From an uncultured Clostridia bacterium (lineage in GTDB: Bacteria; Bacillota; Clostridia; TANB77; CAG-508), in the NCBI GenBank assembly GCA_934167135.1, contig CAKPKI010000001.1, positions 1 through 51,042 of the forward strand: 51,042 nt of DNA. The letters run 5' to 3'. Below the pieces are notes generated by a model. The model was given only the letters and a program-made list of their open reading frames with translations, had not been told where the DNA came from and made no database searches. Numbering within the stretch: position 1 is the first letter of the stretch; the number at the start of each line of letters is the position of its first letter. Position numbers and translations under genes: made by a program. Positions 6,183 through 50,877 of the stretch are shown here, piece by piece.

Positions 6183-6279
6183 ATGGTCATAACTTTTTAT
6201 ATTGTTACTATTTATTTATAGTAACTGTTGCAACCATATACTAATATTTTATACCATTTATAAAAAGGAGGTTAAGATT

Positions 6280-7683
6280 ATGAAACAAAATATTTTTATA
6301 GGCGGAGCATGGCCTTATGCTAATGGTCTACTTCATGTAGGTCACATTGCCTCACTTCTTCCAGGAGATGTTATTGCTAGATACTATCGTAAAAAAGGAG
6401 CAGATGTATTATATGTATCTGGAACTGATTCACATGGTACACCTATAACTTTAAGAGCTCAAAAAGAAAATTGCAATCCTATGAGCATAGTTAATCGGTA
6501 TCATAAAGAATTTTGCTATTGTTTTGATAAATTACAATTCTCATATGACAATTATACCTTAACATGTAATCCATATCATAAAGAGTTTGTAAAATCTTGT
6601 ATTCAGAAGATTTATGACAACGGATATATCTATTCAAAAGATGGACATCTTTACTGGAAACTTAGTAGTTTTCAAAAAGAAATAGAAGAGTTTGTCCATT
6701 TACATGAGGATACTTGGCGTTTTAATGCTATTAATGAATCAAAAAAATATTTAAAAGAAAAATTACATGACCGTGGTATTACACGCCAGTTAGAATGGGG
6801 AATTGATGTTCCTATTAAGGGCTTTGATGATAAAAAGATTTATGTTTGGATTGAGGCAGTTTTAGGATATATTTCAGCAGGAAAATACTTTTGTGAACAA
6901 CATAATTTAGATTGGAATGAATTTTACAAAAATTCAAATGTAAAATCTTATTTTATTCATGGAAAAGATAATATTCCTTTCCATACTATTATTTACCCAG
7001 CATTATTACTTTCTTTAAACGAAGGATATCACCTTCCAGATTACATGATTTCTAGTGAATATCTTAATGTAGATGATGAAAAGATTTCAAAAAGTCAAGG
7101 CAATGGTGTAACTGCTAGAGAACTTATTGAAAAATACAATTCAGATACTATTAGATATTACATGATTTCTCAAGCTCCAGAGCAAAAAGATTCTAATTTT
7201 AGTTATGATGTATTAATTCAACTTCATAACAAAAAATTGGTTGGTGAATATGGTAATTTTGTTAATCGCAATTTAGCTTTTTTAGTAAAAAAATTTGATG
7301 GTCTCATCCCTTATGGTATTATTGACGAAGAAGTAAAAAAACATATTTTAAACACTTATAAGACAGTAGGCAATTTGATTGAAACAGGTAATTTAAAAAA
7401 TGCTATATGCAAAATTCAGGAATTAGTACAATTTGCAAACAAATATTATGATGATAATACACCTTGGATTTATGTAAAAAAAGATATTGACATTTTTAAT
7501 AATATAACTTCCACTTGTATTGATTTAATTATTAATATTGCAAATTTATATGAACCATTTATTCCTGATTCATCACAAAAAGTGTTTAGCTTTTTTGGAA
7601 AGTCCAACTATAATTGGGAATATGTTTCTGTTAAGCCTTTAATTTATTTGCAAAATATTAGTGTTCTTTTTAATAGAATTTAA
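6280..7683 (+). CDS. metG: Methionyl-tRNA synthetase-like protein (467 aa) lacking the zinc-knuckle part of the connective peptide and the C-terminal tRNA-binding appendix
   Basis: WPYANGLLHVGH (HIGH motif), GTDSHGTPI, FSYDNY, YVWIEAVLGY, GKDNIPFHTIIYPALL, KISKSQG (KMSKS motif) and an anticodon-domain pattern NKYYDDNTPW. The start is set at the ATG after AAAAGGAGG, and the longer track ORF is a 5' extension. Confidence 0.85.
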   Translation: MKQNIFIGGAWPYANGLLHVGHIASLLPGDVIARYYRKKGADVLYVSGTDSHGTPITLRAQKENCNPMSIVNRYHKEFCYCFDKLQFSYDNYTLTCNPYHKEFVKSCIQKIYDNGYIYSKDGHLYWKLSSFQKEIEEFVHLHEDTWRFNAINESKKYLKEKLHDRGITRQLEWGIDVPIKGFDDKKIYVWIEAVLGYISAGKYFCEQHNLDWNEFYKNSNVKSYFIHGKDNIPFHTIIYPALLLSLNEGYHLPDYMISSEYLNVDDEKISKSQGNGVTARELIEKYNSDTIRYYMISQAPEQKDSNFSYDVLIQLHNKKLVGEYGNFVNRNLAFLVKKFDGLIPYGIIDEEVKKHILNTYKTVGNLIETGNLKNAICKIQELVQFANKYYDDNTPWIYVKKDIDIFNNITSTCIDLIINIANLYEPFIPDSSQKVFSFFGKSNYNWEYVSVKPLIYLQNISVLFNRI

Positions 7684-7941: not shown

Positions 7942-8421
7942 TCATTTTTTATAAATTTTCTTATTTATAATATAATCAACAAATATTGTTAGTTTGTTCT
8001 TTATTTCATCTGAATATGATAAGAAATTATAATTTAATGAGCCACAGATATATCCTAAATCCAGTATTTCATTTGAATTCAAATCAACTACAATTATTTC
8101 ATCTTTATTATCAAACATTCTACTATCTATTAGTTCTTCTGCATTAAAATTTATAAATTCTTTACCTTCAATATTTTCTTTAAAGATTATACTATCTTTT
8201 TTTACTAAAATATCTGCTTCATTGTCAGCGATATCCATAATTTCAAATTTAAAATAATCTATGTTTAATTCTCTTTTTAAATACGCTATTAATCTATCTT
8301 CAATAAAATCCTTTTTTTGGTACAAAATTTTTCTTATTCCTTGCAATTCTTCTTTAGCTTCTTTTAATTTTAATTCTGCATTTGATTCTATTTTTAATAG
8401 TTTTTGATATGATTGTATCAT
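7942..8421 (-). CDS. Hypothetical acidic protein (159 aa), last gene of the element cargo operon
   Basis: ORF only. It has a coiled-coil-like N-terminus and I recognise no family. Confidence 0.45.
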   Translation of the reverse strand: MIQSYQKLLKIESNAELKLKEAKEELQGIRKILYQKKDFIEDRLIAYLKRELNIDYFKFEIMDIADNEADILVKKDSIIFKENIEGKEFINFNAEELIDSRMFDNKDEIIVVDLNSNEILDLGYICGSLNYNFLSYSDEIKNKLTIFVDYIINKKIYKK

Positions 8422-8472: not shown

Positions 8473-9363
8473 TTATAAATTATAATATTGTTTTATTTTT
8501 TTTACTAATTCAAGTGTTGCCTTATTACACATGTTCTTTTTTAATGTTGCAATTCCCTCTTTCAATTCTGATAAGTCTAATTTTTGTATAATTTTTATAT
8601 TATCTTTAATATCGCTTAAATTTTCCGTATTGGTAAATCCAATCCCCATATCATTAAGTACAAGCCTTTTCATTATTGAGGAACTTGAAACTTCGTAATC
8701 AGCAGTTAAAGATATATTTTCTTTATTACAAAAATCATCCAATATTTTCTTTTTTGCTGATAACGATTTTGGCAATATCAATTTATGATTTTCAATCTCT
8801 TTAAAATCTTTAATTGGATTCTTTTCTAAATACTGCTTACTAGCAAAAAAGCTAAAACTTGAATCCTTTAATGGTATAATTTCAATATTTGAGTATTTTT
8901 TGTCTTTATATGGTAAATTTAATACAACTATATCTAATTCTCCATTTGCTAATTTCTGCATTAATACATCAGTTATTCCACTACCAATAGAAACTTCAAT
9001 ATCTGGATATTCTTTTATAAACTCTAAAAGTGGTTCAAATATTAAAGATGATAATAAAGAATTGCCTCCTCCTATTCTTATTTTTCCCTTTTCTAGATTA
9101 ATGTATTTCGAAAATATGTTTTCTGCATTATTCATAGTTTCTATACTATTTTTTATATATTCATATAAATTTTTACCTTCTTCTGTTAATTCTACACCAT
9201 TTTTGTTTCTGTAAAAAACTTTTCCTCCTAATATATTTTCAAGTTTTTGTATTGATTGTGTTATTGCTGATTGCGAAATATACATACTTTCAGCGGTTTT
9301 TGAAATATTTTTATATTTTACTACTTCATAAAATACCTTATATAATTCTAAATTTGTATTCAT
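8473..9363 (-). CDS. LysR-family transcriptional regulator
   Basis: N-terminal HTH LELYKVFYEVVKYKNISKTAESMYISQSAITQSIQKLE, plus a LysR substrate-binding-type C-terminus. The start is set at the ATG after GGAGGATAAG. Confidence 0.85.
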   Translation of the reverse strand: MNTNLELYKVFYEVVKYKNISKTAESMYISQSAITQSIQKLENILGGKVFYRNKNGVELTEEGKNLYEYIKNSIETMNNAENIFSKYINLEKGKIRIGGGNSLLSSLIFEPLLEFIKEYPDIEVSIGSGITDVLMQKLANGELDIVVLNLPYKDKKYSNIEIIPLKDSSFSFFASKQYLEKNPIKDFKEIENHKLILPKSLSAKKKILDDFCNKENISLTADYEVSSSSIMKRLVLNDMGIGFTNTENLSDIKDNIKIIQKLDLSELKEGIATLKKNMCNKATLELVKKIKQYYNL

Positions 9364-9377
9364 CTTATCCTCCAATA

Positions 9378-10859
9378 TTAATTTTTAGATATACCATCAT
9401 CTCGAGTTGTTGCATTTAATGATTTTTCTTGTTTTTTACTCTTTGTTTCTTCATTAGTTTCTTTTGGCAATTCTACTTGAAATGCTTTTTTTTCGTTTGA
9501 AATAGGTTCTGTTGGATATATTATATTAGATTTTATTGTATCATCTAAATATTTCATTTTTTCCTTGTTTTCTTTAATATTAGCAAATATCTTTTTTATT
9601 TTGGAAATTATTCCTTGTTCTTCTTTTATTGCTAATGCTTTTGTTTTGGTCTTTTTATCATTAAAGTATTGATTAATATTTATTCCATCTGCACCATCAA
9701 CAATTTTTCCTATGTCTTTTTCATTATTTGAATATATGCATGTAAAACCATTACCTGGCTGAAATGTAAATATTTTATTTGAGTCATAACTGTTAATTAT
9801 TGAGGCTAGTAACCAATGTGTCATTCTTCCTGATAAATACAAATTTTTGTTTTCTTTTATTTCTGGTAATACACATTTTTCATAATCCTCTAATGAATAT
9901 TGTTCTTTTGTAAGGTCAATATCCATAAAAAGATTTTCCTTATTTTCAATAATATTATAGGCTAAGCCCTCTGTTTGTTTTAAACCTTTTTTCTTAGGAA
10001 TTTCCTTTATTGGAATATATTCACTTTTTCTTGCGTCATATATACTTACATCTTTTGCCCCTTGTTGTTTTAATGCTTTACATATAGCCCCCAAAACAAA
10101 ATTCGCCCTAACTCCATTTATTTTTATAGGTTGGTTTGATTTTATTTTTGTTTGTATATTTTTATATATTTGTGGCAATGCCTCAGAAGTCCATTTTACT
10201 TTTTTTATTGCTGTTCCATCTTCTGTTATTAACTCTTTTCCATATCCTAGTTCAAACCCTAATTCTGTATCATCAATCATTGTTTCTTTAATATCTTTAT
10301 GTTGAATTTCATCTTTTTCTGCATATTTGCTCTTTTGAATAATATCTGATACTAACGATTCTATTACAGTTGATTTGTTCAAAAGTTCTCCTCTTTTTAG
10401 TCCTACTATTTTACCTTGTAAATATGGTTCTTTTGAATATATTTCTTCTTGTCCTTCTAATCTAGAATCTATACACCCTACACAGTCTAGTCCCAGTGAT
10501 TGCCCAAATTGTAACCATTCATTTTTCTTTTCTTCATTATTGCTTAATACTACAAAACTATCACAGTGTTGAAAAACTTGCTTATTTTCTTTTGAAATTA
10601 CTCCTCCAACATCAACTAATACTATTTCATTTGTTTGATTGTCTATTGCTTGGCATGCATTATTTATAAAACTATCAGTGAACTTTCCTTTTTTTCTTAC
10701 AATTTCTATTTCTTTTTGATTTTTGTTGTTGCTCCAAGTTCCCTCTCCATCAGGACATGCTCTGATAATTGTATAAGCATTTGTTGGCATTTTGTCAATT
10801 AAATTTGCTATAAATACAGTTTTGCCAGAATGAGGTGGCCCACAAAAAACTATCTTCAT
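9378..10859 (-). CDS. P-loop NTPase fused to two tandem Csx3-like domains and a Lys/Glu-rich tail (493 aa)
   Basis: Walker A GPPHSGKT and a Walker-B-like LVDVGG. Residues about 300-390 (FMDIDL...LPEIKENKNLYLSGRMTHWLLASIINSY..IFTFQPGNGFTCIYS..IGKIVD) resemble the Csx3 family pattern as I recall it from A. fulgidus Csx3 (LPE..ISGRGPIWL...VAVYDPRLG.VVV). Residues about 195-285 show a degenerate copy (KINGVRANFVLGAICKAL..VSIYDARKSEYIPI). Confidence 0.55.
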   Translation of the reverse strand: MKIVFCGPPHSGKTVFIANLIDKMPTNAYTIIRACPDGEGTWSNNKNQKEIEIVRKKGKFTDSFINNACQAIDNQTNEIVLVDVGGVISKENKQVFQHCDSFVVLSNNEEKKNEWLQFGQSLGLDCVGCIDSRLEGQEEIYSKEPYLQGKIVGLKRGELLNKSTVIESLVSDIIQKSKYAEKDEIQHKDIKETMIDDTELGFELGYGKELITEDGTAIKKVKWTSEALPQIYKNIQTKIKSNQPIKINGVRANFVLGAICKALKQQGAKDVSIYDARKSEYIPIKEIPKKKGLKQTEGLAYNIIENKENLFMDIDLTKEQYSLEDYEKCVLPEIKENKNLYLSGRMTHWLLASIINSYDSNKIFTFQPGNGFTCIYSNNEKDIGKIVDGADGININQYFNDKKTKTKALAIKEEQGIISKIKKIFANIKENKEKMKYLDDTIKSNIIYPTEPISNEKKAFQVELPKETNEETKSKKQEKSLNATTRDDGISKN

Positions 10860-11284: not shown

Positions 11285-11950
11285 CTATTTCATATTTAAT
11301 TGCTTATTTAATTTATTAGTCAATATTTTTTGTCTAATCATATTTATAGCATATGCTACTATTGCAATCACACCATACAAAATCAATATATTTTTGATAT
11401 CTATATCTGTAGAATATTGAACTTTTGTTGGATTAATTTCATTAATTGCTTTATTTAGAATCATTTCATATCCAATATTTATAATAAAAGTAGAAACAGC
11501 TATTATCATAAAAGCAACTATTAATTCAATAATTACTTGTTTTTTTGAGGTCTTCTGGATTGCAACTATGTAGATTATAGTTCCTAATACAATGCCTATT
11601 ATCAATGTTAAAGAATATACTCGCATAATTCTGTTTGTTGAAAATATACTAATAAGTTTATATAAAGATATTCCTTCTGAAGGATAATCTTCTCCATATA
11701 ATTCTTTTTCTTCTTTTGCTTTTTTATCAATTTGTTCAGCCTGTTCTTGATAAGCTTTTCCAATTTCAATTAAAGTTTCAGAATCGCTGTCCAAACTATT
11801 TATTATTTCTAATTGAGTATTCTCATATACAGATGATAAAAACAAAGTCGTAGTTCCTATAAATACAGATATTATAACTGTATATAAAATTGTTACTAAT
11901 AGTTTTTTTATTGAAAATTTTTTGAATTCTATTTTCTTCATATCACTCAC
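11285..11950 (-). CDS. Membrane protein (about 4 TM) partnered with the LytTR regulator
   Basis: Hydrophobic segments are LLVTILYTVIISVFIGTTTLFL, SLTLIIGIVLGTIIYIVAI, IIELIVAFMIIAVSTFII and ILILYGVIAIVAYAI. Its start overlaps the LytTR gene stop by 8 nt. Confidence 0.6.
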   Translation of the reverse strand: MSDMKKIEFKKFSIKKLLVTILYTVIISVFIGTTTLFLSSVYENTQLEIINSLDSDSETLIEIGKAYQEQAEQIDKKAKEEKELYGEDYPSEGISLYKLISIFSTNRIMRVYSLTLIIGIVLGTIIYIVAIQKTSKKQVIIELIVAFMIIAVSTFIINIGYEMILNKAINEINPTKVQYSTDIDIKNILILYGVIAIVAYAINMIRQKILTNKLNKQLNMK

Positions 11951-12407
11951 TCCTATCTTTTAAAAATCTCATAATTTCTGTTGTTTTCCTTTTTGAAACA
12001 CTTTCTTCATTTCCATCTTTAAATTTAACTATTATCTTTCCAATGATACTCGTATTAAAGCATTTAACATGATTTATATTTATAATTGATGAATTAGATA
12101 TTCTAATAAAGTCCTTTGAAGGGAGTGCCTCTTCAAGATAATACAATTTTTCTTTTATTTTATAAACTCCGTCTTTTGTTTTACAAAAGTTATTTTTTTC
12201 TTCACTAAAAAACATTATTACATCTGATACATTAATTATAAAAATATCATTATTTTGCATAGCAATTATCTGTTTTATTGACTTAGAATTTTTTGATAAT
12301 AATTCATTTTCTAATTTTTGTACTTCTTCATTTTTTTCTGGTGCATTAATGCACACTTCTATGCTTTGAAATTCACTTGAAATATTAGTACATACTTTAA
12401 ATTCCAT
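11943..12407 (-). CDS. LytTR-domain DNA-binding protein (stand-alone, no receiver domain)
   Basis: The C-terminal half (YYLEEALPSKDFIRISNSSIININHVKCFN...GKIIVKFKDGNEESVSKRK) fits the LytTR domain pattern. Confidence 0.65.
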   Translation of the reverse strand: MEFKVCTNISSEFQSIEVCINAPEKNEEVQKLENELLSKNSKSIKQIIAMQNNDIFIINVSDVIMFFSEEKNNFCKTKDGVYKIKEKLYYLEEALPSKDFIRISNSSIININHVKCFNTSIIGKIIVKFKDGNEESVSKRKTTEIMRFLKDRSE

Positions 12408-12532: not shown

Positions 12533-14080
12533 CTAGGTAATTCTGTTTAATTGCTTAAAATTGAAATATAAATCTACCTGTTTATCTTGATGTATCTCAA
12601 TTTTATTAATAATTACTTTCATAAATTCTGGTGTTAGTTCTTTTAACGCAAAAAATTCTTGTACAATACTTTTTATTTTTTCTGTATCATCTTGTTTTAA
12701 TTCTCCTTTTTGTTTTTTAATTTCTATGTATTCTTTTTCTTTTTGTTTTATTTCATCTCCAAATTTTTTCAATAATCTTTCATACATTTCTTCACTTATT
12801 TTATTGTTTAATTTGTCTATATACATTTGTTCAATATTATTATTTATCAATTTTATCTCGCTTTCTAATTTTTGAAGTATTTTTCCATAATCATATTTTG
12901 TCATTCCTCTTTTTACTTCTAATTCTATTTTTTCACTATCTATTTTTTGAAATAAATTTTTAATATAATTAATTATAATATCTTCTAAATTATTATAACT
13001 AAATCCATGTGATGTGCAAAGCCCTAATTTTGAATTTCTGCGATAATTATTGCATACCATATAATAATTACCGTTCTTTTTTCCTCTTACACCTATTTTA
13101 TGCTTACATTCGTAACAGAAAAGCAATCCATCTAGCAAAAACATATTCTTTTTTTCATTTCTATTGTAGCTCTGAACTATTACCATTTTTTGCACAACAT
13201 CAAATACTTTTTTATCTATTATTGGTTCATGTGTATTTTCTACAACAACCCATTTTTCTTCTGGATTTTGTCTGATTTTTCTATTTTTATAACTTATTCT
13301 ACTTCTTTTATTTTGCACTGTTGTGCCTATATAAACCTTGTTTTTTAATATATTTTTTACTGTTTTATTTTCCCAAAAAGTTTCTTTATTATATCTTGAT
13401 TTATTAGCTGTCGGAATATTGTTGCTATTTAAATAATCTCTTATTGTTCCAACTTGATTTCCATTAGATGCCATATTAAAAATGCTTCTTACAATTTTTG
13501 CCTCTTGCTCATAAATTATTAATTTATTTTTATCATTTGAATCTTTTATGTATCCAAGTGGCGTTTTTCCACCTACCCATTTTCCTTGTTTTTGCATAGT
13601 GTGCATTGCTGTTCTGATTTTTTTTGATAAGTCTTTTGAATACATATCATTTAATATTGATTTAAATGGTGCAATATCATTGTTGCCATTTGATGTTTCA
13701 AAAGTATCTATTCCATCTGTTACTGAAACATATCTTACATTATTTTCTGGGAACCATTTTTCTATATATTCTCCCGTTTCTATATAGTCACGACCTAAAC
13801 GAGATAAGTCTTTTGTTACAACCATATTAATTTTTCCGTTTTCTATATCTCTTATCATCCTTTGAAAATCTGGTCTATTAAAATTTGTCCCTGTAAAACC
13901 TTGATCTATATATGTATCTATTAATTTATAATTTTCCCCTAATTTTTGCACATATTCTGTTAGTAATGTTCTTTGATTTTTTATGCTTTCACTTTCATCA
14001 TATCCTCTGTCTACATCTTCTTTTGATAGTCTTATATAAATTGCTACTTTGTATGTCGTTTTCTCTTTTTGTTCAAGCAT
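12533..14080 (-). CDS. Large serine recombinase (integrase/resolvase family, 515 aa)
   Basis: The N-terminal resolvase catalytic domain is VAIYIRLSKED...SIKNQR...GFTGTNFNRPDFQRMI...VVTKDLSRLGRD. It is followed by the recombinase domain, a Cys-rich zinc-ribbon region (CYECKHK...CNNYRR...C) and a coiled-coil C-terminus. Confidence 0.9.
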   Translation of the reverse strand: MLEQKEKTTYKVAIYIRLSKEDVDRGYDESESIKNQRTLLTEYVQKLGENYKLIDTYIDQGFTGTNFNRPDFQRMIRDIENGKINMVVTKDLSRLGRDYIETGEYIEKWFPENNVRYVSVTDGIDTFETSNGNNDIAPFKSILNDMYSKDLSKKIRTAMHTMQKQGKWVGGKTPLGYIKDSNDKNKLIIYEQEAKIVRSIFNMASNGNQVGTIRDYLNSNNIPTANKSRYNKETFWENKTVKNILKNKVYIGTTVQNKRSRISYKNRKIRQNPEEKWVVVENTHEPIIDKKVFDVVQKMVIVQSYNRNEKKNMFLLDGLLFCYECKHKIGVRGKKNGNYYMVCNNYRRNSKLGLCTSHGFSYNNLEDIIINYIKNLFQKIDSEKIELEVKRGMTKYDYGKILQKLESEIKLINNNIEQMYIDKLNNKISEEMYERLLKKFGDEIKQKEKEYIEIKKQKGELKQDDTEKIKSIVQEFFALKELTPEFMKVIINKIEIHQDKQVDLYFNFKQLNRIT

Positions 14081-14368: not shown

Positions 14369-14830
14369 TTAAAATATGTTATCATTATATTTTACTAAAT
14401 TAATTGCCGAATCTAATGTTTCAGTGCAACATAATTTCCCTCGAATATCTACATATAATAAATCGCTAATATTAGACAAGCTTCTTGCTTGCTTAATATC
14501 ACTTATAACAATTTCTTTTTTAAAGTTCATATCTTTGTCAATTATTCTAATATCATAACATTTTCTTTTTGATTTGAATATCAAATATTTTACATTTTTA
14601 TTCTTCTGATGATGATCAAATTCTCCTAATCCTATATCAAAAACTAACTTATTATTTGTATTTCTATTCTCTATACTTGGAACTCTAATTAATTTTATTT
14701 CTTTAAAAATTTTACTTAAAAATACAGTTGATATTACATCATCTACATGAAATGTTCCTGAATGTGTAACAAAATTTGCTTTGTTATACTGCTTTGTTAT
14801 TTTTATATTTTTATACTTAAACATTTTCAT
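14369..14830 (-). CDS. Chimeric ORF with a MYG1-family (UPF0160) N-terminal about 75 aa followed by an unrelated C-terminus
   Basis: FVTHSGTFHVDDVISTVFL...LVFDIGLGEFDHHQ matches the MYG1 N-terminal metal-binding pattern. Similarity ends right after DHHQ, and full-length MYG1 proteins are about twice this size. The start is set at the ATG after AAGGTGAAG. Confidence 0.45.
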   Translation of the reverse strand: MKMFKYKNIKITKQYNKANFVTHSGTFHVDDVISTVFLSKIFKEIKLIRVPSIENRNTNNKLVFDIGLGEFDHHQKNKNVKYLIFKSKRKCYDIRIIDKDMNFKKEIVISDIKQARSLSNISDLLYVDIRGKLCCTETLDSAINLVKYNDNIF

Positions 14831-18218: not shown

Positions 18219-19553
18219 TTATAATCCCATAATAACTGTCGCAATATTAAAATACACTAATACAGAAAGAATATCAACAATAGTAGTAATTAATGGTGCT
18301 GCCATAATTGCAGGGTCTAATTTTAGTTTTTTTGCAAGTAAAGGCAATAAGCATCCAATTGACTTAGATAATATAACTGTAGTAGTTATACTTAGACCTA
18401 CTGTACATGCTAATTGTAAGTTTTTATATTGAGCAAAAATTCTTAAGCCATTAATAGTTGCTAATGATATTCCTACTATAACAGCTATTCTTATTTCTTT
18501 CCATAAAATTTTGAATACATCTTTTACTTCAAGTTCATCTGTTGCAAGACCACGAATTATAAGTGTTGAGCTTTGTGAACCACAATTTCCACCTGTATCC
18601 ATTAGCATTGGTAAAAATGCTACTAATAATGGAACTGCAGCAAATGCATTTTCATAATTTGTTATAATTGTTCCAGTTATTGCTGATGAAAGCATTAATA
18701 TTAATAACCATACAATTCTGTTTTTAGCATGTTTGAATACTGATGTTTCAAAATAGCTTTCTTCTGTTGGAGCCATAGCAGCCATTTTTTCAAAATCTTC
18801 CTCTGCTTCATCTTGTAATACATTAATAGCATCATCTACTGTTACTATACCTACTAATCTATTTTCATTGTCAACTACAGGTAATGCATATAAATCATAT
18901 TTATCAAATTTTTTTGCAACTTCTTCTTGATCTTCTAATGTGTTTACAGATATTATATTTGTTTCCATATTATCAGAAATCAATGTGTCTTCTTTTGACA
19001 ATAATAATTCTTTTATACTTATAATTCCTTGTAATTTCCTATTTTCATCTAATACATAACAAGTATATATTGTTTCTGAATCTGTTCCTATTTGGCGTAT
19101 TCTATCTAATGCTTGTTCTATTGTCATATTTTCCTTTAAATCTATAAACTCTGTTGTCATGATACTTCCAGCACTATCATCAGGATATTTTAATAGCTCA
19201 TTGATTATTTTTCTGTCATTTTTATCTACATTTCTTAAAATTCTTGTTACAACATTTGATGGCATTTCTTCTATTAAGTCTACTGTATCATCCATAAATA
19301 ATTCATCTAATATATTTTTTAACTCTGTATCTGTCAAGTCTTTTATTAATTTTTCTCTCATGTCTGTTTCCATATAAGAAAATGCCATACCGGCTTTTTC
19401 TTTTGATAGCAATCTAAAAAGAATAACAGCTTGTTCTTTGTCTAATTCATCTAATATCTCTGATATATCAGCACTTTTCATTTCTTTAAGTTCTTTTTTT
19501 AGTTGTGTAAATTGCTTATTTTCAATTAATTCTTTTATTTCTTCTATATTCAT
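18219..19553 (-). CDS. mgtE: Magnesium transporter MgtE (copy 1)
   Basis: MgtE N-domain, two CBS modules and a TM domain with GGNCGSQSSTLIIRGLA and LDPAIMAAPLITT. The start is at the ATG 7 nt after GGAGG. Confidence 0.9.
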   Translation of the reverse strand: MNIEEIKELIENKQFTQLKKELKEMKSADISEILDELDKEQAVILFRLLSKEKAGMAFSYMETDMREKLIKDLTDTELKNILDELFMDDTVDLIEEMPSNVVTRILRNVDKNDRKIINELLKYPDDSAGSIMTTEFIDLKENMTIEQALDRIRQIGTDSETIYTCYVLDENRKLQGIISIKELLLSKEDTLISDNMETNIISVNTLEDQEEVAKKFDKYDLYALPVVDNENRLVGIVTVDDAINVLQDEAEEDFEKMAAMAPTEESYFETSVFKHAKNRIVWLLILMLSSAITGTIITNYENAFAAVPLLVAFLPMLMDTGGNCGSQSSTLIIRGLATDELEVKDVFKILWKEIRIAVIVGISLATINGLRIFAQYKNLQLACTVGLSITTTVILSKSIGCLLPLLAKKLKLDPAIMAAPLITTIVDILSVLVYFNIATVIMGL

Positions 19554-19568
19554 TTTCACCCCTCCTTG

Positions 19569-20906
19569 CTAAAGTCCCATAACATGTGTTGCAACTTGGA
19601 AATAAACCAATATTGAACACACATCAACAACTGTTGTAATTAATGGTGCTGCCATAATTGCAGGGTCTAATTTTAATCTTTTAGCAAGTAGTGGTAATGT
19701 ACAACCTATTATTTTAGATACAAGTACTGTTGCTATTAATGTAATATTTAAAACAATTGCAAGTTGCATATTTTGATATTGAATCATTATTCTTATCATG
19801 TTTACAATTGCTAAAGCAATACCAACAACTATTGCCACTCTGATTTCTTTCCAAAGTACCCTAAATATGTCTTTTAATTTTATTTCATCTGTGGCAAGTC
19901 CACGGATTATAAGTGTTGAACTTTGTGAACCGCAATTTCCACCTGTTCCCATTATCATAGGAATAAACGCTACTAATATTGGTACTACAGCAAACGCATC
20001 TTCATATTTGGTTAATATGTTTCCTGTAAATGCTGATGATAACATTAATATCAATAGCCATAATATTCTGCTTTTTGCATGTTTAAATACTGATGTCTGA
20101 AAATATCCTTCTTCTGTTGGTGTTATAGCTGCCATCTTTTCAAAATCTTCTTCTACTTCATCTTGTAATACATTTATAGCATCATCTATTGTTATTATTC
20201 CAACTAGTCTATTTTCATGATCTACAACTGGTAGTGCATAATAGTCATATTTATCAAATTTTTTTGCAACTTCTTCTTGATCTTCTAATGTTTTTACAGA
20301 TATTATATTTGTTTCCATTAGAGTTCCTATCTTTGTTTCCTTTTTACTTAATAGAATGTCTTTTATATTTATAATACCTTTTAATATTCTTTCTGTGTTT
20401 AATACATAACAAGTATATATTGTTTCAGAATCTATTCCAATTTTTCTAACTCTTTTTAGTGCTTCTTCTGCTGTCATGTCTTCTTTTAAATCTATAAATT
20501 CTGTTGTCATTATGCTTCCTGCACTATCTTCTGGATATTTTAATAATTCATTGATTACCTTTCTGTCTTCATGTGGAATTGCCTTTAGTATTTTAGGAAT
20601 TATATTTGATGGCATTTCTTCTATTAAGTCTACTGTATCATCCATGAATAATTCATCTAATACATTTTTTAATTCTGTGTCTGTTAAATCTTGTATTAAT
20701 TTTTCTCTCATGTCTGATTCCATATGTGAAAATGTTTCTCCTGCTTTTTCTTTTTTTAATAGTCTAAATACTATTATTACACTTTCTTTGTTATCTAGTT
20801 CATCCAATATTTCTGATATATCTGCACTATTCATTTCTTCTAATTTACTTTTTAACATTGTAAATTTTTTGTTTTCTACTAATTCTTTTATTTCTTCTAT
20901 TTCCAT
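19569..20906 (-). CDS. mgtE: Magnesium transporter MgtE (copy 2, tandem paralog)
   Basis: Same architecture and motifs as copy 1. The start is at the ATG after AGGGGGAAAG (MEIEEIKELVENK). Confidence 0.9.
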   Translation of the reverse strand: MEIEEIKELVENKKFTMLKSKLEEMNSADISEILDELDNKESVIIVFRLLKKEKAGETFSHMESDMREKLIQDLTDTELKNVLDELFMDDTVDLIEEMPSNIIPKILKAIPHEDRKVINELLKYPEDSAGSIMTTEFIDLKEDMTAEEALKRVRKIGIDSETIYTCYVLNTERILKGIINIKDILLSKKETKIGTLMETNIISVKTLEDQEEVAKKFDKYDYYALPVVDHENRLVGIITIDDAINVLQDEVEEDFEKMAAITPTEEGYFQTSVFKHAKSRILWLLILMLSSAFTGNILTKYEDAFAVVPILVAFIPMIMGTGGNCGSQSSTLIIRGLATDEIKLKDIFRVLWKEIRVAIVVGIALAIVNMIRIMIQYQNMQLAIVLNITLIATVLVSKIIGCTLPLLAKRLKLDPAIMAAPLITTVVDVCSILVYFQVATHVMGL

Positions 20907-20968
20907 TTCTTTCCCCCTATCTATTTGAATAATTAAGAAATGGATTAAAAAATAATGTATCAAAAAAT

Positions 20969-35880: not shown

Positions 35881-37071
35881 CTATTTTATTAATCTTTCTG
35901 TCTCTTTTGCAATCATAAGTTCTTCGTTTGTAGGAATTACATAAACTTTGATTTTAGAATCTGGAGTAGAAATTTCTTTTTCTTCTCCTCTCATATTGTT
36001 TGCTTCTACATCAATATTAACTCCCATAAATTCAAGTTTTTCACAAATTCCTTTTCTGATATTTATTTGGTTTTCTCCAATTCCTCCTGTAAATACTATG
36101 TAATCTACTCCATTCATTGCAATTGCATATTTTGCTATATATGAAGCTATTTCATATTTAAATTTTTCTATTGCAATTGCAGCACTTTCACTATCACCAT
36201 AAGAAGCTAATTCTATTTCTCTAAAATCTGGTGCTAATTCTGATATAGCTTGAAGTCCTGATTTTTTATTTAGTATATCTTCTGTTTGGTCAGGCGTTAA
36301 TCCTTCTTTTCTCATTATAAATGTTACAACAGATGGATCAAGGTCACCTGAACGAGTTACCATTGGAATTCCTCCAAGTGGTGTTAATCCCATACTTGTA
36401 TCTAAAGATTTTCCATCTTTTACAGCACATATACTTGAACCTTGTCCTATATGACATGTAACAATTTTTAAATCTTTAACATCTTTTTTTACAATTTCAG
36501 CTAATCTTTGAGAAACATACATATGAGAAGTTCCATGAGCACCATATTTTCTTACTCCGTATTTTTCATAATATTCATATGGGATTGGATATATGTATTT
36601 TTCTTTTGGCATTGTTTGATGAAATGTAGTATCAAATACTGCTACCATTGGCTTTCCTGGCATAACATTCATACATGCTTTCATTCCTAATATTGCTGCT
36701 GGGTTATGTAATGGTGCAAATATTCCACATTCACTTATTTGTTCCATAACTTTTTCATTTATTACTGCTGATTCTTTGAATATTTCTCCTCCATGTACAA
36801 CTCTATGACCAATTGCTTCAATTTCATCTAAACTATCAATAACTTTATATTTTGGGTTAGTAAATTGTTCAAGTGTAAATTCTATTGCTTCTTTGTGGTC
36901 ATATGCTGGTTTTTTGATTTTAACTTTTTGACCATTTACTTTATGTGTTATAAAAGCCTCTGCTTCTCCTATTCTCTCATATTTTCCAGAAGCTAGAACT
37001 TCTTCTGTTTCCATATTTATTAATTGATATTTTAGTGATGAGCTACCACAATTTAATACTAATATTTTCAT
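35881..37071 (-). CDS. ackA: Acetate kinase (copy 2 in the operon)
   Basis: MKILVLNCGSSSLKYQL, GHRVVHGG, HGTSH and TGGIGEN. Confidence 0.9.
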   Translation of the reverse strand: MKILVLNCGSSSLKYQLINMETEEVLASGKYERIGEAEAFITHKVNGQKVKIKKPAYDHKEAIEFTLEQFTNPKYKVIDSLDEIEAIGHRVVHGGEIFKESAVINEKVMEQISECGIFAPLHNPAAILGMKACMNVMPGKPMVAVFDTTFHQTMPKEKYIYPIPYEYYEKYGVRKYGAHGTSHMYVSQRLAEIVKKDVKDLKIVTCHIGQGSSICAVKDGKSLDTSMGLTPLGGIPMVTRSGDLDPSVVTFIMRKEGLTPDQTEDILNKKSGLQAISELAPDFREIELASYGDSESAAIAIEKFKYEIASYIAKYAIAMNGVDYIVFTGGIGENQINIRKGICEKLEFMGVNIDVEANNMRGEEKEISTPDSKIKVYVIPTNEELMIAKETERLIK

Positions 37072-37092
37072 TTTTTTATTATTCCTTTCCTT

Positions 37093-38286
37093 TTAATTTT
37101 TTACAATTTCTTCTGTTTCTTTGGCAATCATTAGTTCCTCATTTGTTGGAACTACAAAAACTTTTACTTTTGAGTTTGGAGATGAAATTTCTGCTTCCTC
37201 TCCTTTTATTATATTTTCCTTTCCTGATATTTCTACACCCAATACTTCAAGATACTTGCATATTTCACTCCTAGAATAAGGCGATTTTTCTCCAACACCA
37301 GCAGTAAATGTTATTACATCTATTCCACTCATTGCCACTGCACATTTTGCAATATATCCAGCTATTGAGTAATGATAAACATCTAATGCTAATTTTGCAA
37401 GTTTTCCACCTGCTAATGCTTCTGCTTCTATATCTCTAAAATCAACAGAAACCATGGATGTACCAAATACACCTGATTCTTTATTTAAAATATTTTCCAT
37501 TTCATCAGGACTTAAATTCTCTTTTTTCATTAAAAATGTTATAACTGATGGATCTAAATCTCCTGAACGAGTTCCCATTGGAATTCCTCCAAGTGGTGTT
37601 AATCCCATACTAGTTTCTACTGATTCACCATTCTTTATAGCACATATACTTGCTCCTTGTCCTAAATGACAATTTACAATTTTTAATTCTTTAATGTCTT
37701 TTCCTATTATTTCTGCTACTCTATTTGCTACATACTGGTGTGAGGTACCATGAAATCCATATTTTCTTACATGATATTTTTTATAAAATTCATATGGAAT
37801 TGGATATATGTATTTTTCCTTTGATATCGTTTGATGAAATGCGGTATCAAATACTGCCACCATAGGTTTATTAGGTATAACTTTTTTACATGCTTCTATT
37901 CCTAAAACTGCTGATGGGTTATGCAATGGTGCTAATTCTCGTGTATTTTTAATTTCTTCTATTACTTCATCTGTTATTAGAACTGCATTTTTAAATTTTT
38001 CTCCTCCATGTACAACTCTGTGCCCAATTGCATCTAGTTCATCTAAACTTTTAAATATTCCATAAACTTCATTTGTTAATCTTTCCATTACAAATTGTAT
38101 GGCTTTTTCATGATTTTTTACAGGATGTTCAAATTTGTGTTTTTCTCCATTTACTTTATGTCTTAAAAAAGAACCAGCTTGACCTACTCTTTCGTAATTT
38201 CCTTTTACAAGCATTTCTCCTGTATCTGAATCTATAACTTGGTATTTTAAAGATGAACTGCCTGAATTTAATACTAATATCTTCAT
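37093..38286 (-). CDS. ackA: Acetate/propionate kinase family (copy 1 in the operon)
   Basis: MKILVLNSGSSSLKYQV, GHRVVHGG, HGTSH and TAGVGEK. Paralog of 35881-37071. Confidence 0.88.
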   Translation of the reverse strand: MKILVLNSGSSSLKYQVIDSDTGEMLVKGNYERVGQAGSFLRHKVNGEKHKFEHPVKNHEKAIQFVMERLTNEVYGIFKSLDELDAIGHRVVHGGEKFKNAVLITDEVIEEIKNTRELAPLHNPSAVLGIEACKKVIPNKPMVAVFDTAFHQTISKEKYIYPIPYEFYKKYHVRKYGFHGTSHQYVANRVAEIIGKDIKELKIVNCHLGQGASICAIKNGESVETSMGLTPLGGIPMGTRSGDLDPSVITFLMKKENLSPDEMENILNKESGVFGTSMVSVDFRDIEAEALAGGKLAKLALDVYHYSIAGYIAKCAVAMSGIDVITFTAGVGEKSPYSRSEICKYLEVLGVEISGKENIIKGEEAEISSPNSKVKVFVVPTNEELMIAKETEEIVKN

Positions 38287-48060: not shown

Positions 48061-49116
48061 CTAAATTTGTATATAACCATCAAATTTTTCTTGCTCATGT
48101 AAGCTAAATTGAGTAAACATTTTCTTTACATCTTCTAGTTGTTGAATTTGAGCTTTGTCTGCATTTCTTTCTTCCATCAATCTTCTTATCTCATTATATT
48201 CTTTCATATTGTTTGCTTGCTGTTCTTTTAGATACATAACATTTGATTCATATTGTAATTTTTTAAAAACTTCAATCTTATTTTTTCCATCTACTAATTG
48301 TGGGATAAATTTTTCTTCTGCTGTTCCTCTTCTATAAGTATGTAGTTTATATAAATCTATACCTTGCATTATTTTTGACATTGCATCATAAGAATCATTA
48401 TGTCTTGCCAAACTTGTTAATTTCGCTTCACCTTTCATCTTTGGATCTCTTATATCTTCTTCATATCTTTTATGTATAGAAAAAGCACTTGGTAAATTTC
48501 CTACTGCAAGTCCAAAATAGTTTATATCATATTGATAATCTTGAAGCATTTTCTTATTTACTCCTATCATTCCTTGTGATGTTGATGGTGCACATTCTAA
48601 AAGAATATCATAACCATTTTCCATAGCATACATATTTATATCATTTGCATGATCATATGAATCAATTCCTGTTAATGCTCCAAAATGTGCTGGATCCTCT
48701 TCAAATAATTTATCTACATCTGTTCTAAATTTCTTAAAATGGTCTGAATTTATTATTACTGATTTTGGATTTTTTCTTAATACCAATTCTCTTAATCTTG
48801 ATTTTCCAGCACCAGTTTGTGCCAATAAAATATTTGCTTTTGGGTTTAACGATTTTTCCTTTCCCGAAAATACAAATCTTACAATTTTTAAAAATGTTAT
48901 AAAATAATCTTTATCAGATAATCTATTGTTTAACATTCTTTGCCCTAGTTCATAATTAATACTACTAGATATTTCTGGTTCAGCTCTTCTTGAAGTATAC
49001 TCAAATAATTTTTGAGGTGTTTCTGGTAAATCATCTAAAAAATCTTGATTTAATTCTAATAAAGCTTGTTCTAGGGCACTTTCATCTAATTTTCTTCTAA
49101 TATCATTTTTTTGCAT
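48061..49116 (-). CDS. Zeta-toxin-family P-loop kinase with an extra N-terminal region of about 90 aa
   Basis: Walker A AQTGAGKS, followed by INSDHFKKF, DILLECAP and SIHKRYEED, in the order typical of zeta/PezT kinases. Confidence 0.6.
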   Translation of the reverse strand: MQKNDIRRKLDESALEQALLELNQDFLDDLPETPQKLFEYTSRRAEPEISSSINYELGQRMLNNRLSDKDYFITFLKIVRFVFSGKEKSLNPKANILLAQTGAGKSRLRELVLRKNPKSVIINSDHFKKFRTDVDKLFEEDPAHFGALTGIDSYDHANDINMYAMENGYDILLECAPSTSQGMIGVNKKMLQDYQYDINYFGLAVGNLPSAFSIHKRYEEDIRDPKMKGEAKLTSLARHNDSYDAMSKIMQGIDLYKLHTYRRGTAEEKFIPQLVDGKNKIEVFKKLQYESNVMYLKEQQANNMKEYNEIRRLMEERNADKAQIQQLEDVKKMFTQFSLHEQEKFDGYIQI

Positions 49117-49337
49117 TATATTGTCCCTTTCTTTCTCTCATCAAGTATTTTTTTTATAATTCTTCCATTATTCATATATATTTCGTGTTGCATTTTTTCT
49201 AAAACTTCAAGTTTTGCTTTATATATGTTATTTTCTTTTGCTTCTTTACAAACAGCATACTTGTTTGTTATATTTGCTATTTCATTTACTACTATATCTA
49301 AAGCTATTTCAACGTCCTCTTCCATATTTTCCTCCAT
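49116..49337 (-). CDS. Small acidic protein (73 aa), candidate cognate antitoxin
   Basis: Its stop overlaps the zeta-like start. Size, acidity and position fit an epsilon-like partner, but there is no recognisable sequence motif. Confidence 0.4.
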   Translation of the reverse strand: MEENMEEDVEIALDIVVNEIANITNKYAVCKEAKENNIYKAKLEVLEKMQHEIYMNNGRIIKKILDERKKGTI

Positions 49338-50140
49338 TATACTATTTCAAAAGTTTCTAAATCATAGGGTACAAATACATTACCTTTATAATATTTTTTA
49401 GCATCTTCAGTAAATATTTGCTTTCTGTGTTCTAAATTTTTATCAGTTGAATGTGATAAGATTATATTTTTTATATGTAATCTTTCTGCCATTTCTGCAA
49501 CAAATTTTACTGTACTATGATGATGTCTTTCTATGGGGTTGTACTCTTCTGCTTCTTTTCCTGCCATATAAGCATCTGAAAATATCCATTCACAATCTTT
49601 TAAGTATTTTTCTGTTTTAACATTACATACTTCATCTCCTAAGAAAACAAATTGTTTTTTAGGCAAATAATTCATAATAAAACCAAATTGTTTTACTTTG
49701 AATGCATTTAAATCAATAAATGTAACATCATTATCTAAAATTTTTACTTTATCACCATCCTCTACCACATTTAGCTTTATCATTGTTCCTACATGTTTTA
49801 AAAGTCCTACTGGTATTAATGCTTCAGACATTTGCTTTATTGCATTAATAACTAAATCATTTCCATATATATTTAGTGGTATTTCATATCCTCTATTATA
49901 ATATCTTACATATTCACGTATTATCCATATAACACCTAGTATATGGTCTATATGTGTATGTGATATAAATATATTTTTTATTTTTTTCATTTCTATATTA
50001 GTATCTTTTAGGTTGTTTATTATTCCATTTCCACCACCTGTATCTACCAAGAAATATTCATCATTTTTTTCTAGTGCAAAACATGTATTATAGCATTCTG
50101 TAACAGAACCATGACCTGTCCCCAACATAATTATTTTCAT
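49337..50140 (-). CDS. MBL-fold metallo-hydrolase
   Basis: HTHIDH motif and ILSH. The start is at the ATG after AAAAAGGAG (MKIIMLGTGHG). Its stop overlaps the next start as TAATG. Confidence 0.8.
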   Translation of the reverse strand: MKIIMLGTGHGSVTECYNTCFALEKNDEYFLVDTGGGNGIINNLKDTNIEMKKIKNIFISHTHIDHILGVIWIIREYVRYYNRGYEIPLNIYGNDLVINAIKQMSEALIPVGLLKHVGTMIKLNVVEDGDKVKILDNDVTFIDLNAFKVKQFGFIMNYLPKKQFVFLGDEVCNVKTEKYLKDCEWIFSDAYMAGKEAEEYNPIERHHHSTVKFVAEMAERLHIKNIILSHSTDKNLEHRKQIFTEDAKKYYKGNVFVPYDLETFEIV

Positions 50141-50217
50141 AGTCTTCAATCTCCTTTTTGGTATAATTTTAAACATTGTAGATACTATCATATTATGTTG
50201 AAATAAGCAATATTTTA

Positions 50218-50877
50218 TTATATATTTTTAAGTGAAATCATTTTGTCATCAAACTTACTAATCATTTTTGCACAATTAACCAATTCTTTTGAAGTTTTTT
50301 TGTTAACTTCATTCTCTGTTTTATACTTTATTTTATGTTCAAAACTTGCCCAGAAATCCATTGCAAGTGTTCTTATTTGTATCTCACATTTTACATATAT
50401 AGTCTTTTGTGACAATTTTACAGGTACTTCAACAATCATATGATAACTTGAATATCCACTTGGCTTTGGATTTGTAACATAATCTTTTTCCTTTAATATA
50501 TGCACATCTGGTATTTGTTTAATTAAATCTTTAACAAAAAATATATCATCTTTTAGTGTACAAACAATTCTCATTCCTGCAATATCATTAATTTTTTCTA
50601 TTAAATTAAAATATGTCTTTTTATACTTTTTCTTTTCCATTTTTTTAACTATACTTTTAGGTTCTTTTATTCTTGTGTCAACATGGTCTATTAAATCATA
50701 ATTATACATTATCTTAAACTCTTCTTTAATTATATTCATTTGTAATTCCAATTGTTTTAATGCAGATTTATAAAAAAACATGAGCTTGTCAAATGGTTCT
50801 TCTTTAACATTTAATTTTTCCTCCTTATTTTCCAAGAAATTTTCAATTATAGTTAATTCATTTTCCCTCATATCCAA
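50218..50877 (-). CDS. Small alarmone synthetase (RelQ/RelP-type GTP pyrophosphokinase)
   Basis: RIKEPKSIVKKM, DIAGMRIVC, SGYSSYHMIV and EIQIRTLAMDFWASFEHKIKYK. Confidence 0.85.
   Translation of the reverse strand: MDMRENELTIIENFLENKEEKLNVKEEPFDKLMFFYKSALKQLELQMNIIKEEFKIMYNYDLIDHVDTRIKEPKSIVKKMEKKKYKKTYFNLIEKINDIAGMRIVCTLKDDIFFVKDLIKQIPDVHILKEKDYVTNPKPSGYSSYHMIVEVPVKLSQKTIYVKCEIQIRTLAMDFWASFEHKIKYKTENEVNKKTSKELVNCAKMISKFDDKMISLKNI

Follow-up and report, generated by a model that had tools for sequence, protein, structure and literature searches.

The stretch of DNA considered here, a 51-kb window (51,042 nucleotides, 'the window' throughout) of contig CAKPKI010000001.1 from an uncultured Clostridia bacterium, carries a complete gene (9378..10859, − strand) for a protein of 493 amino acids (aa), in which an N-terminal P-loop NTPase is followed by a Csx3-like middle domain, a Csx3 domain and a tail, as judged from the list of open reading frames (ORFs), PADLOC and an AlphaFold model. 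With moderate confidence, this protein is interpreted as a ligand-gated nucleoside triphosphate (NTP) switch of the SIMIBI type, belonging to the catalogued 'AAA-Csx3' (C3a67) family and using an asymmetric Csx3 pseudo-dimer as its sensor. The Csx3 module would sense a cyclic or linear oligoadenylate-type ligand, similar to cyclic tetra-adenylate (cA4), and would not work as an autonomous ring nuclease. SIMIBI NTPases are typically nucleotide-dependent dimers; if the ligand made the Csx3 modules stack or dimerise, two NTPase domains would be brought together, an arrangement in which the protein could act as the proposed switch.

The output of this switch would be carried by the operon partners, a LysR-type regulator and a 160-aa protein. 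The gene appears to have left CRISPR loci in a clade of gut Clostridia and to work there in a conserved mobile operon with these two partners. In most relatives a histidine-bearing tandem-Csx3 partner could supply the half-site that the fusion is missing. Because the copy in the window lacks this partner, its product most likely does no more than sense or sequester the ligand, with the NTPase relaying the signal.

Tandem Csx3 domains and their residues

The C-terminal Csx3 domain (residues ~296-390; 9690..9974, −) was delimited by hhalign, Foldseek, Pfam and a residue table, and two of its motifs, LSGRMTHWL (residues 342-350) and FTFQPGNGFTCIYS (residues 364-377), could be read directly from the translation. 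When the family profile of residues 296-395 was aligned with Csx3 of A. fulgidus (AfCsx3, also known as Crn3 or AF1864), hhalign gave a probability of 99.4% (E=8e-22, 86 columns). A Foldseek search of the PDB with the AlphaFold model returned 11 matches at E<=1e-3, all of them A. fulgidus Csx3/Crn3 (3WZG, 3WZI, 3WZH, 6YUD, 6VJG), the best having a TM score of 0.82 normalised to the target and a root mean square deviation of 1.9 A over 93 columns. The model itself, built from a 48-sequence alignment, has a mean predicted local confidence (pLDDT) of 94.8 and a pTM of 0.91 over residues 1-400. The Csx3 signature which the earlier note had recognised by eye at the C-terminus is therefore borne out by both a profile and a structural match. 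With profiles the match is far above chance; with single-sequence Pfam and TIGRFAM models it is borderline, since PF09620 scored 20.5 bits over residues 321-377 (cutoff 21) and TIGR02579 scored 17 bits (cutoff 55.4). A single-sequence search against the PDB found AF1864 at E ~0.7.

The middle domain (residues ~193-290; 9990..10283, −) was recognised from hhalign, conservation and the secondary structure of the model. Residues 190-295 aligned with residues 296-395 at a probability of 94.5% (E=7.5e-8) and with AfCsx3 at 94% (E=1.5e-7), the N-domain controls staying below 0.5%, and the middle and C-terminal domains share the order strand-strand-helix-strand-helix-strand-strand in the AlphaFold model. 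The degenerate duplicate that had been suspected at about residues 195-285 is thus supported as a diverged Csx3 copy, giving the protein a built-in pseudo-dimer.

Cleavage of cA4 by AfCsx3 is lost altogether in the mutants H60A and D69A and is strongly reduced in R71A and H80A; the conserved H57 is, together with H60, a likely Mn2+ ligand (PMC7371418). The ligand cA4 is contacted by S44, G45, R46, I49 and R71 (PMC7371418). The composite active site forms where one dimer, through its D69 face, meets the H60 face of the next, and the D-x-R pair and the S-G-R loop both lie on the cA4-binding 'D69 face' (PMC7371418). By hhalign mapping, the C-domain of the window's protein keeps S343-G344-R345, equivalent to S44-G45-R46, and W349, equivalent to W50. 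At the positions of H57, H60, D69, R71 and H80 it has N356, D359, Q367, G369 and N378. The middle domain has K261, K264, D275, R277 and I287 at the same five positions; its Y274-D275-x-R277 aligns with Y68-D69-x-R71 of AfCsx3, and in place of the S-G-R loop it has N-G-V (N-G-V/I).

Conservation of these residues was counted over 25 close relatives and, for the broad family, over an alignment of 48 diverse relatives at 22-73% identity. D275 is present in all 25 close relatives (25/25) and in 41/48 of the broad family, and R277 in 24/25 of the close clade. The C-domain loop of the broad family has S in 43/48, G in 47/48 and R or K in 42/48. The two domains together make an asymmetric pseudo-dimer with one copy of each ligand-face element and no metal-site histidine of the opposite face.

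No histidine was found at the Csx3 catalytic positions in either domain of any of the close relatives (25/25). An 'HHP' motif is kept in the middle domain of 8/48 members of the broad family, most of which also keep the C-domain histidines, and 40/48 lack the Csx3 histidines, including P0130, a protein encoded next to Cas6b. Loss of the histidines was for this reason rejected as a marker of the orphan clade.

Because all three AfCsx3 catalytic histidines are missing from both domains, ring-nuclease activity of the 493-aa protein is doubtful, and the cutting of a signal molecule has probably been lost. The earlier description of 'ring-nuclease domains' is likewise doubtful at the residue level: the AfCsx3 catalytic residues have been lost from the C-domain, and the middle domain keeps D275 and R277 alone, without a histidine. 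Since the histidines have been lost while both Walker motifs are essentially invariant, a role as a sensor is more likely for the Csx3 module than one as an autonomous ring nuclease, with the NTPase as the conserved output. A cyclic oligoadenylate (cOA)-sensing NTPase, which the earlier note had offered as its alternative, fits this residue pattern better.

A probable SIMIBI-like NTPase domain

The N-terminal P-loop NTPase domain (residues 1-182; 10314..10859, −) was defined from PADLOC PDLC01515, Foldseek and profile comparisons. The two motifs previously reported for it were confirmed by direct reading of the translation, the Walker A motif GPPHSGKT at residues 7-14 (10818..10841, −) and the Walker B or G3-like motif LVDVGG at residues 81-86 (10602..10619, −), as was the extent of the ORF, which occupies exactly 9378-10859 (−). 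Among the 48 diverse relatives G7, G12, K13, G85 and G86 are invariant and D83 is nearly so. The PADLOC model PDLC01059 ('C3a67 AAA-Csx3') matched residues 3-360 to model positions 7-346 of 382 (E=1.7e-44), the Csx3-associated NTPase model PDLC01515 matched over residues 1-171 (E=1.7e-48), and the 'Csx3-AAA' model matched the 493-aa protein at E=4e-40.

Apart from Csx3 itself, the high-probability Foldseek matches in the PDB all belonged to the SIMIBI class, namely ParA/delta, MinD, HypB, BchL, BcsQ, Etk/Wzc, SRP54/FtsY and MeaB. Their probability is ~1.0, yet their E values of 1e-3 to 2e-2 and TM scores of 0.3-0.5 place the likeness at the fold level. When the profile of the N-domain was searched against PDB sequences the matches were weak, the longest alignments running from Walker A to 'vLvDvGGR' with FtsY, SRP54 and UreG; the weak FtsY match covers positions 3-99 at E=0.004. 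None of the top 50 Foldseek matches in the PDB was an AAA+ protein, and the AAA-type Pfam matches to the domain were sub-threshold and mostly limited to the P-loop region, the longest (AAA_18, RNA_helicase) covering residues 3-83. Membership of the AAA+ class was rejected, as neither a lid nor any family-level AAA+ profile or fold match was found. The model thus points to a SIMIBI-like domain (ParA/MinD/HypB/SRP) rather than an AAA+ domain. In the AlphaFold model the domain measures ~180 aa, has no helical lid and carries a D-x-G-G Walker B, and because of these features and the SIMIBI fold matches the label 'AAA', used in the literature for the Csx3-linked NTPase, is a misnomer.

At the other end of the protein, a K/E-rich, clade-specific tail (residues 391-493 plus the stop; 9378..9689, −) is poorly conserved in the close-clade alignment. 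It is missing from the CRISPR-linked relatives of ~385 aa, as seen from the lengths of distant relatives.

A conserved cassette on mobile elements

The family is wide, with 554 clusters (50% identity) related to residues 1-400, many of which are ~385 aa long and colinear over residues 1-388. A CRISPR origin of the family is supported by its distant members, since these adjoin Cas6b and WYL genes or a Cas_NE0113-GerE gene. The histidine-retaining members P0162 and P0198 are encoded beside bpMoxR (AAA_5) and VWA genes (locus L027, 2310-8082; locus L029, 103-5011), which gives the NTPase-Csx3 family a further setting outside CRISPR. No homologue was found in 50,697 phage records, and the search of BFVD gave no match at E<=1e-3. 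The plasmid matches were limited to cyanobacterial Csx3-AAA genes and were made through the NTPase domain.

Close relatives of the window's protein (55-73% identity, ~495 aa) abound in gut metagenomes, among them those of human and pig, and in metagenome-assembled genomes (MAGs) labelled 'uncultured Clostridia'. The scan of the genome collection yielded five close loci, too few for co-occurrence statistics with cas10. The LysR gene follows the AAA-Csx3 gene in all close-clade loci that continue beyond it, and the 160-aa gene comes next on those contigs that are long enough to include it. No cas gene or array was found in the close-clade loci within ~10 kb on either side (less on short contigs), no cyclase was found in any of these 21-kb loci, and PADLOC recognised nothing else in the cassette.

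In the window, the LysR-type regulator (8473..9375, −; Pfam HTH_1 and LysR_substrate) starts 3-15 nt past the stop of the AAA-Csx3 gene, and the cassette partner, a 159-aa protein (7942..8421, −), was identified from its ORF and the homologue survey. The latter belongs to a clade-specific family of 216 homologues, all ~160 aa long, many of which come from contigs equal in length to those giving AAA-Csx3 matches. The 159-aa protein had no Pfam, PADLOC or NCBIfam match, and although it was modelled at a pLDDT of 89.7, Foldseek found nothing in the PDB below E=1.

The fourth gene of the cassette, present in most relatives, encodes a stand-alone tandem-Csx3 protein of 233-244 aa, or of 379-388 aa with an N-terminal extension. 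This protein contains two Cas_csx3 stretches (E=9e-13) and aligns with residues ~195-386 of the window's protein. By eye, an HTVH motif in its first domain aligns with H57 and H60, and its second domain has SGRGP and ITHS, the latter aligned with H80. The tandem-Csx3 partner thus seems to carry the half-site missing from the NTPase fusion. No copy of the partner gene occurs in the 51-kb window. The ~150-aa extension of the longer partners (L021, 12977-14143; L007, 12968-14107) has two H-x-T motifs, MHITFKF and PHITVSL, and by eye resembles a 2H phosphoesterase. As Pfam, NCBIfam and phmmer against the PDB gave no support for it, this resemblance is retained as a lead only.

The clearest element was found in locus L022 (5864-14828), where two serine recombinases and the four-gene cassette, as essentially the sole cargo, form an element of ~8 kb that splits a Peptidase_S11 (D-Ala-D-Ala carboxypeptidase) gene. 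The layout recalls the intervening elements by which sporulation genes of Firmicutes are interrupted. L009-L012 contain the Peptidase_S11 insertion in a larger form, and in L021 the cassette lies beside RepA_N and integrase genes. An intact MYG1 gene of 302 aa adjoins the cassette in two related MAGs (L005, 12901-13809; L007, 14415-15323), which hints at a functional link or a shared insertion site.

A sister lineage carries a frameshift in the gene, where a 1-nt insertion in the Walker B codons turns VDVGG into VDVGR, followed by a stop. The gene is split in this way into ORFs of 92 and 410 aa (L013, 9739-10017 and 10001-11233; also proteins P0093-P0120). The frameshift recurs in dozens of independent contigs and is therefore a real feature of the lineage and not a sequencing error.

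Within the window, a large serine recombinase of 515 aa (12533..14080, −; Pfam Resolvase, Recombinase and Zn_ribbon_recom) lies 1.7 kb upstream of the Csx3 gene and adjoins a truncated gene for MYG1/UPF0160, a DHH-like phosphoesterase (14603..14830, −), of which the N-terminal 76 codons remain, ending after DHHQK (Pfam MYG1_exonuc, positions 3-66 of 318). The break in MYG1 is a possible element junction. The C-terminal part of MYG1 was not found in the window, and for this reason the second junction could not be located there. Between the recombinase and the Csx3 gene there is a pair of genes seen only in the window's lineage, for a LytTR DNA-binding protein (11943-12407, −; Pfam LytTR, E=1.6e-18) and a 221-aa predicted multi-pass membrane protein (11285-11950, −), which overlap by 8 nt. 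It had earlier been stated that the gene is cargo of an integrative element, and this is plausible: a recombinase is adjacent and the relatives' cassette clearly sits on Peptidase_S11-splitting elements, but the element could not be delimited in the window. The further statement that no cas gene or array is nearby was upheld, since no cas family was found among the genes of the window and the array, tRNA and Rfam searches of the 51 kb were equally empty.

Comparison with known systems

The architecture had been thought to be uncharacterised. This is correct for its biochemistry but not for its recognition, as it was catalogued in 2018 as cluster 67 or C3a67 (PMC6546367) and has a PADLOC model, and for that reason it is not a new kind of protein. 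Shah et al. (2018) described the type III accessory clusters 35 ('Csx3-AAA', cyanobacteria) and 67 ('C3a67, AAA-Csx3', Caur_2269), and proposed an ATPase that is allosterically regulated by cOA through its Csx3 domain (PMC6546367). Later reviews and papers list the Csx3-fused ATPase domain as 'of unknown function' or uncharacterised. The window's protein resembles C3a67 in the order of NTPase and Csx3, in its full-length profile match, in the invariant Walker motifs and in having cas-adjacent distant members. Its clade differs in lying away from cas genes and arrays, in the extra tail of ~100 aa and in its LysR / 160-aa / tandem-Csx3 cassette on serine-recombinase elements. Neither the second Csx3-like domain nor the SIMIBI nature of the NTPase is part of the published description of C3a67 (PMC6546367).

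The likeness to AfCsx3 (PDB 3WZG, 6YUD) lies in the fold, S-G-R loop and W50 of the C-domain and in the Y-D-x-R of the middle domain. AfCsx3 is a homodimer of ~100 aa per chain which stacks into filaments and needs H60, D69, R71, H80 and Mn2+ (PMC7371418). In contrast, the protein studied here has two fused, diverged copies without histidines at H57/H60/H80, each half bearing part of the D69 face. The cyanobacterial Csx3-AAA proteins (cluster 35; slr7080 on pSYSA of Synechocystis) share a homologous NTPase (27-32% identity over residues 1-180, E down to 6e-22) which is likewise fused to Csx3 and equally uncharacterised. They differ in their reversed domain order, their location beside a III-B CRISPR locus on a plasmid, and their phylum. 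Deletion of slr7080 left plasmid interference unaffected.

AcrIII-1 (DUF1874) is comparable in its proposed role only, as a cA4-directed protein on a mobile element; there is no relation in sequence or fold (no DUF1874 match in Pfam or by fold). It is a phage- or virus-borne, fast, metal-independent nuclease, whereas for the 493-aa protein no relatives were found among phages, and the Csx3 catalytic residues are missing from it. The SIMIBI NTPases (ParA/MinD, HypB/UreG, SRP54/FtsY) provide the closest solved folds for residues 1-182, and the Walker A and hhhD-x-G-G motifs are shared, the latter being aligned with the DTAGR motif of FtsY. The N-domain has neither the signature lysine of the deviant Walker A nor a recognisable NKxD guanine-specificity motif, and the similarity is at fold level only.

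Three aspects are new. The first is the tandem-Csx3 pseudo-dimer with complementary half-sites, here made explicit, and the second is the model-based assignment of the NTPase as SIMIBI-like. The third is the large CRISPR-independent clade of gut Clostridia with its conserved LysR / 160-aa / tandem-Csx3 cassette on minimal serine-recombinase elements. Reviews of type III signalling leave the function of Csx3-fused NTPases unassigned, and the present locus and its relatives offer testable handles: a covalent pseudo-dimer sensor with asymmetric half-sites, an NTPase that probably belongs to the dimerisation-dependent switches and not to the AAA+ unfoldases, and a very abundant gut-Clostridia clade in which the protein operates away from CRISPR loci, as part of a four-gene cassette that moves on minimal integrative elements. 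Should the cassette prove to bind or destroy cyclic oligoadenylates, the human gut microbiome would contain a new class of cOA-immunity modulators carried by such elements; if the ligand is something else, the Csx3 fold would have been recruited to a different signal.

Competing explanations

Several observations weigh against a ligand-gated switch with an oligoadenylate sensor. No signal generator (Cas10, CD-NTase or mCpol) was found in the cassette or the 51-kb window, and therefore the ligand could be other than cOA. Another catalytic solution, or cleavage within a hetero-complex, is still conceivable, as the loss of residues speaks against the AfCsx3 mechanism only. The SIMIBI assignment is based on the Foldseek values (E 1e-3 to 2e-2, TM 0.3-0.5) and weak profile matches noted above, and the residues of the tandem-Csx3 partner were assigned by eye and not from a profile alignment. 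The literature on the family reports no measured ligand, NTPase activity or oligomeric state. Finally, given how widespread the Walker B frameshift is, there may be hosts in which the NTPase is not needed or the cassette is in decay.

Of the alternatives, the one that survives best, though it is considered unlikely, is that the protein is anti-defence cargo by which the element blunts the cOA immunity of its host (type III CRISPR or CBASS). It would do so either as a cA4 sponge or as the D/R half of a composite ring nuclease, stacked head-to-tail with the histidine-bearing partner. The AfCsx3 site is itself composite and the two cassette proteins keep complementary halves of it; phosphoesterase genes adjoin the cassette (MYG1 in L005 and L007, PHP in L009); and ring nucleases of viruses and plasmids are established anti-CRISPRs. 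The cassette is essentially the sole cargo of the two-recombinase L022 element and rides on recombinase or integrase elements elsewhere, and an anti-CRISPR role, put forward in the earlier note, is still tenable because of this. It gained no direct support, however, from the phage records and BFVD, where homologues were absent, or from a survey of 28,114 phage genomes that found AcrIII-1, Csx20 and Csx16 but no Crn3. The window also lacks the partner and its MYG1 is truncated, and therefore only the sponge role would be left in this genome. Moreover, an invariant NTPase has no obvious role in either a sponge or a nuclease.

An extension of this idea is rated as rather improbable. It holds that the cassette is a mobile, CRISPR-independent 'oligoadenylate module' in which the fusion and its histidine-bearing partner, each with one half of the composite site, stack round cA4 to give an NTP-gated hetero-oligomer that serves as ring nuclease or sensor and is controlled by LysR. 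With such a module a minimal serine-recombinase element could detect the type III CRISPR or CBASS signalling of its host and shut it off, and genomes that have lost the partner, like the present one, would keep a pure sensor or sponge.

Improbable to a similar degree is a stand-alone or trans-acting defence effector, in which a cOA-activated NTPase damages the cell, brings it to arrest or turns on a LysR regulon when a cyclase encoded elsewhere fires, and so makes a beneficial cargo for the element. This reading agrees with the definition of the family as a type III accessory, and the cOA-allosteric ATPase proposed by Shah et al. (PMC6546367) is of this kind. Most members, the CRISPR-adjacent P0130 among them, lack the histidines and therefore look like sensor-effectors. 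Genes for ToxN and RelA_SpoT occur close to the cassette in L013, and the bpMoxR-VWA genes beside the histidine-retaining relatives are conflict-system genes. Against such an effector, the protein has no recognisable toxic domain and the 160-aa partner no known fold, the 21-kb close-clade loci contain no cyclase, the cassette holds nothing else that PADLOC recognises, and a Walker B frameshift in a common lineage would be unexpected for an effector under selection.

The least probable alternative, an exapted or decaying remnant whose pseudo-dimer no longer binds oligoadenylates and which either regulates the element together with LysR (e.g., its excision or maintenance) or is drifting to loss, can draw on the lost catalytic residues, the lost partner gene and truncated MYG1 of the window, the frameshifted sister lineage and the tight coupling to a transcription factor, but the ORF in the window is intact, many positions in all three domains are invariant across the clade at 55-70% identity, and the S-G-R, D-x-R and W349 ligand-contact residues are retained across the 554-cluster family. 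The ligand-gated NTP switch is the interpretation preferred here.

Other features of the window

Directly downstream of the cassette there is a MetRS-like gene (6202-7683, +; tRNA-synt_1g, E=1e-101), on the strand opposite to almost all other genes and near NUDIX, radical-SAM and MetK genes. In L001, a DUF3560 gene lies just past the start of the window. Genes of the DUF3560 family are common on mobile elements, and in view of this gene and the setting of the MetRS-like gene the mobile region may extend further left of the cassette. A scan for promoters and terminators gave counts no better than those of shuffled sequence.

The rest of the window is of a housekeeping kind, with genes for HtpG, two MgtE proteins, TyrRS, two-component systems, ABC/FtsX transporters, PTA, two acetate kinases, a GGDEF protein, an HD protein, a PBP, RNase Y, MetK and the MetRS-like protein. 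The MgtE magnesium transporters are tandem paralogues of 446 and 464 aa (18219-20963, −), and the acetate kinase genes are likewise a tandem duplication (396 and 397 aa; 35881-38286, −). Near the right end of the window (48061-50877, −) are genes for a Zeta-toxin, a metallo-beta-lactamase-fold protein and a small RelA_SpoT synthetase. An identical copy of the metallo-beta-lactamase-fold gene in L026 matches Pfam Anti-Pycsar_Apyc1.

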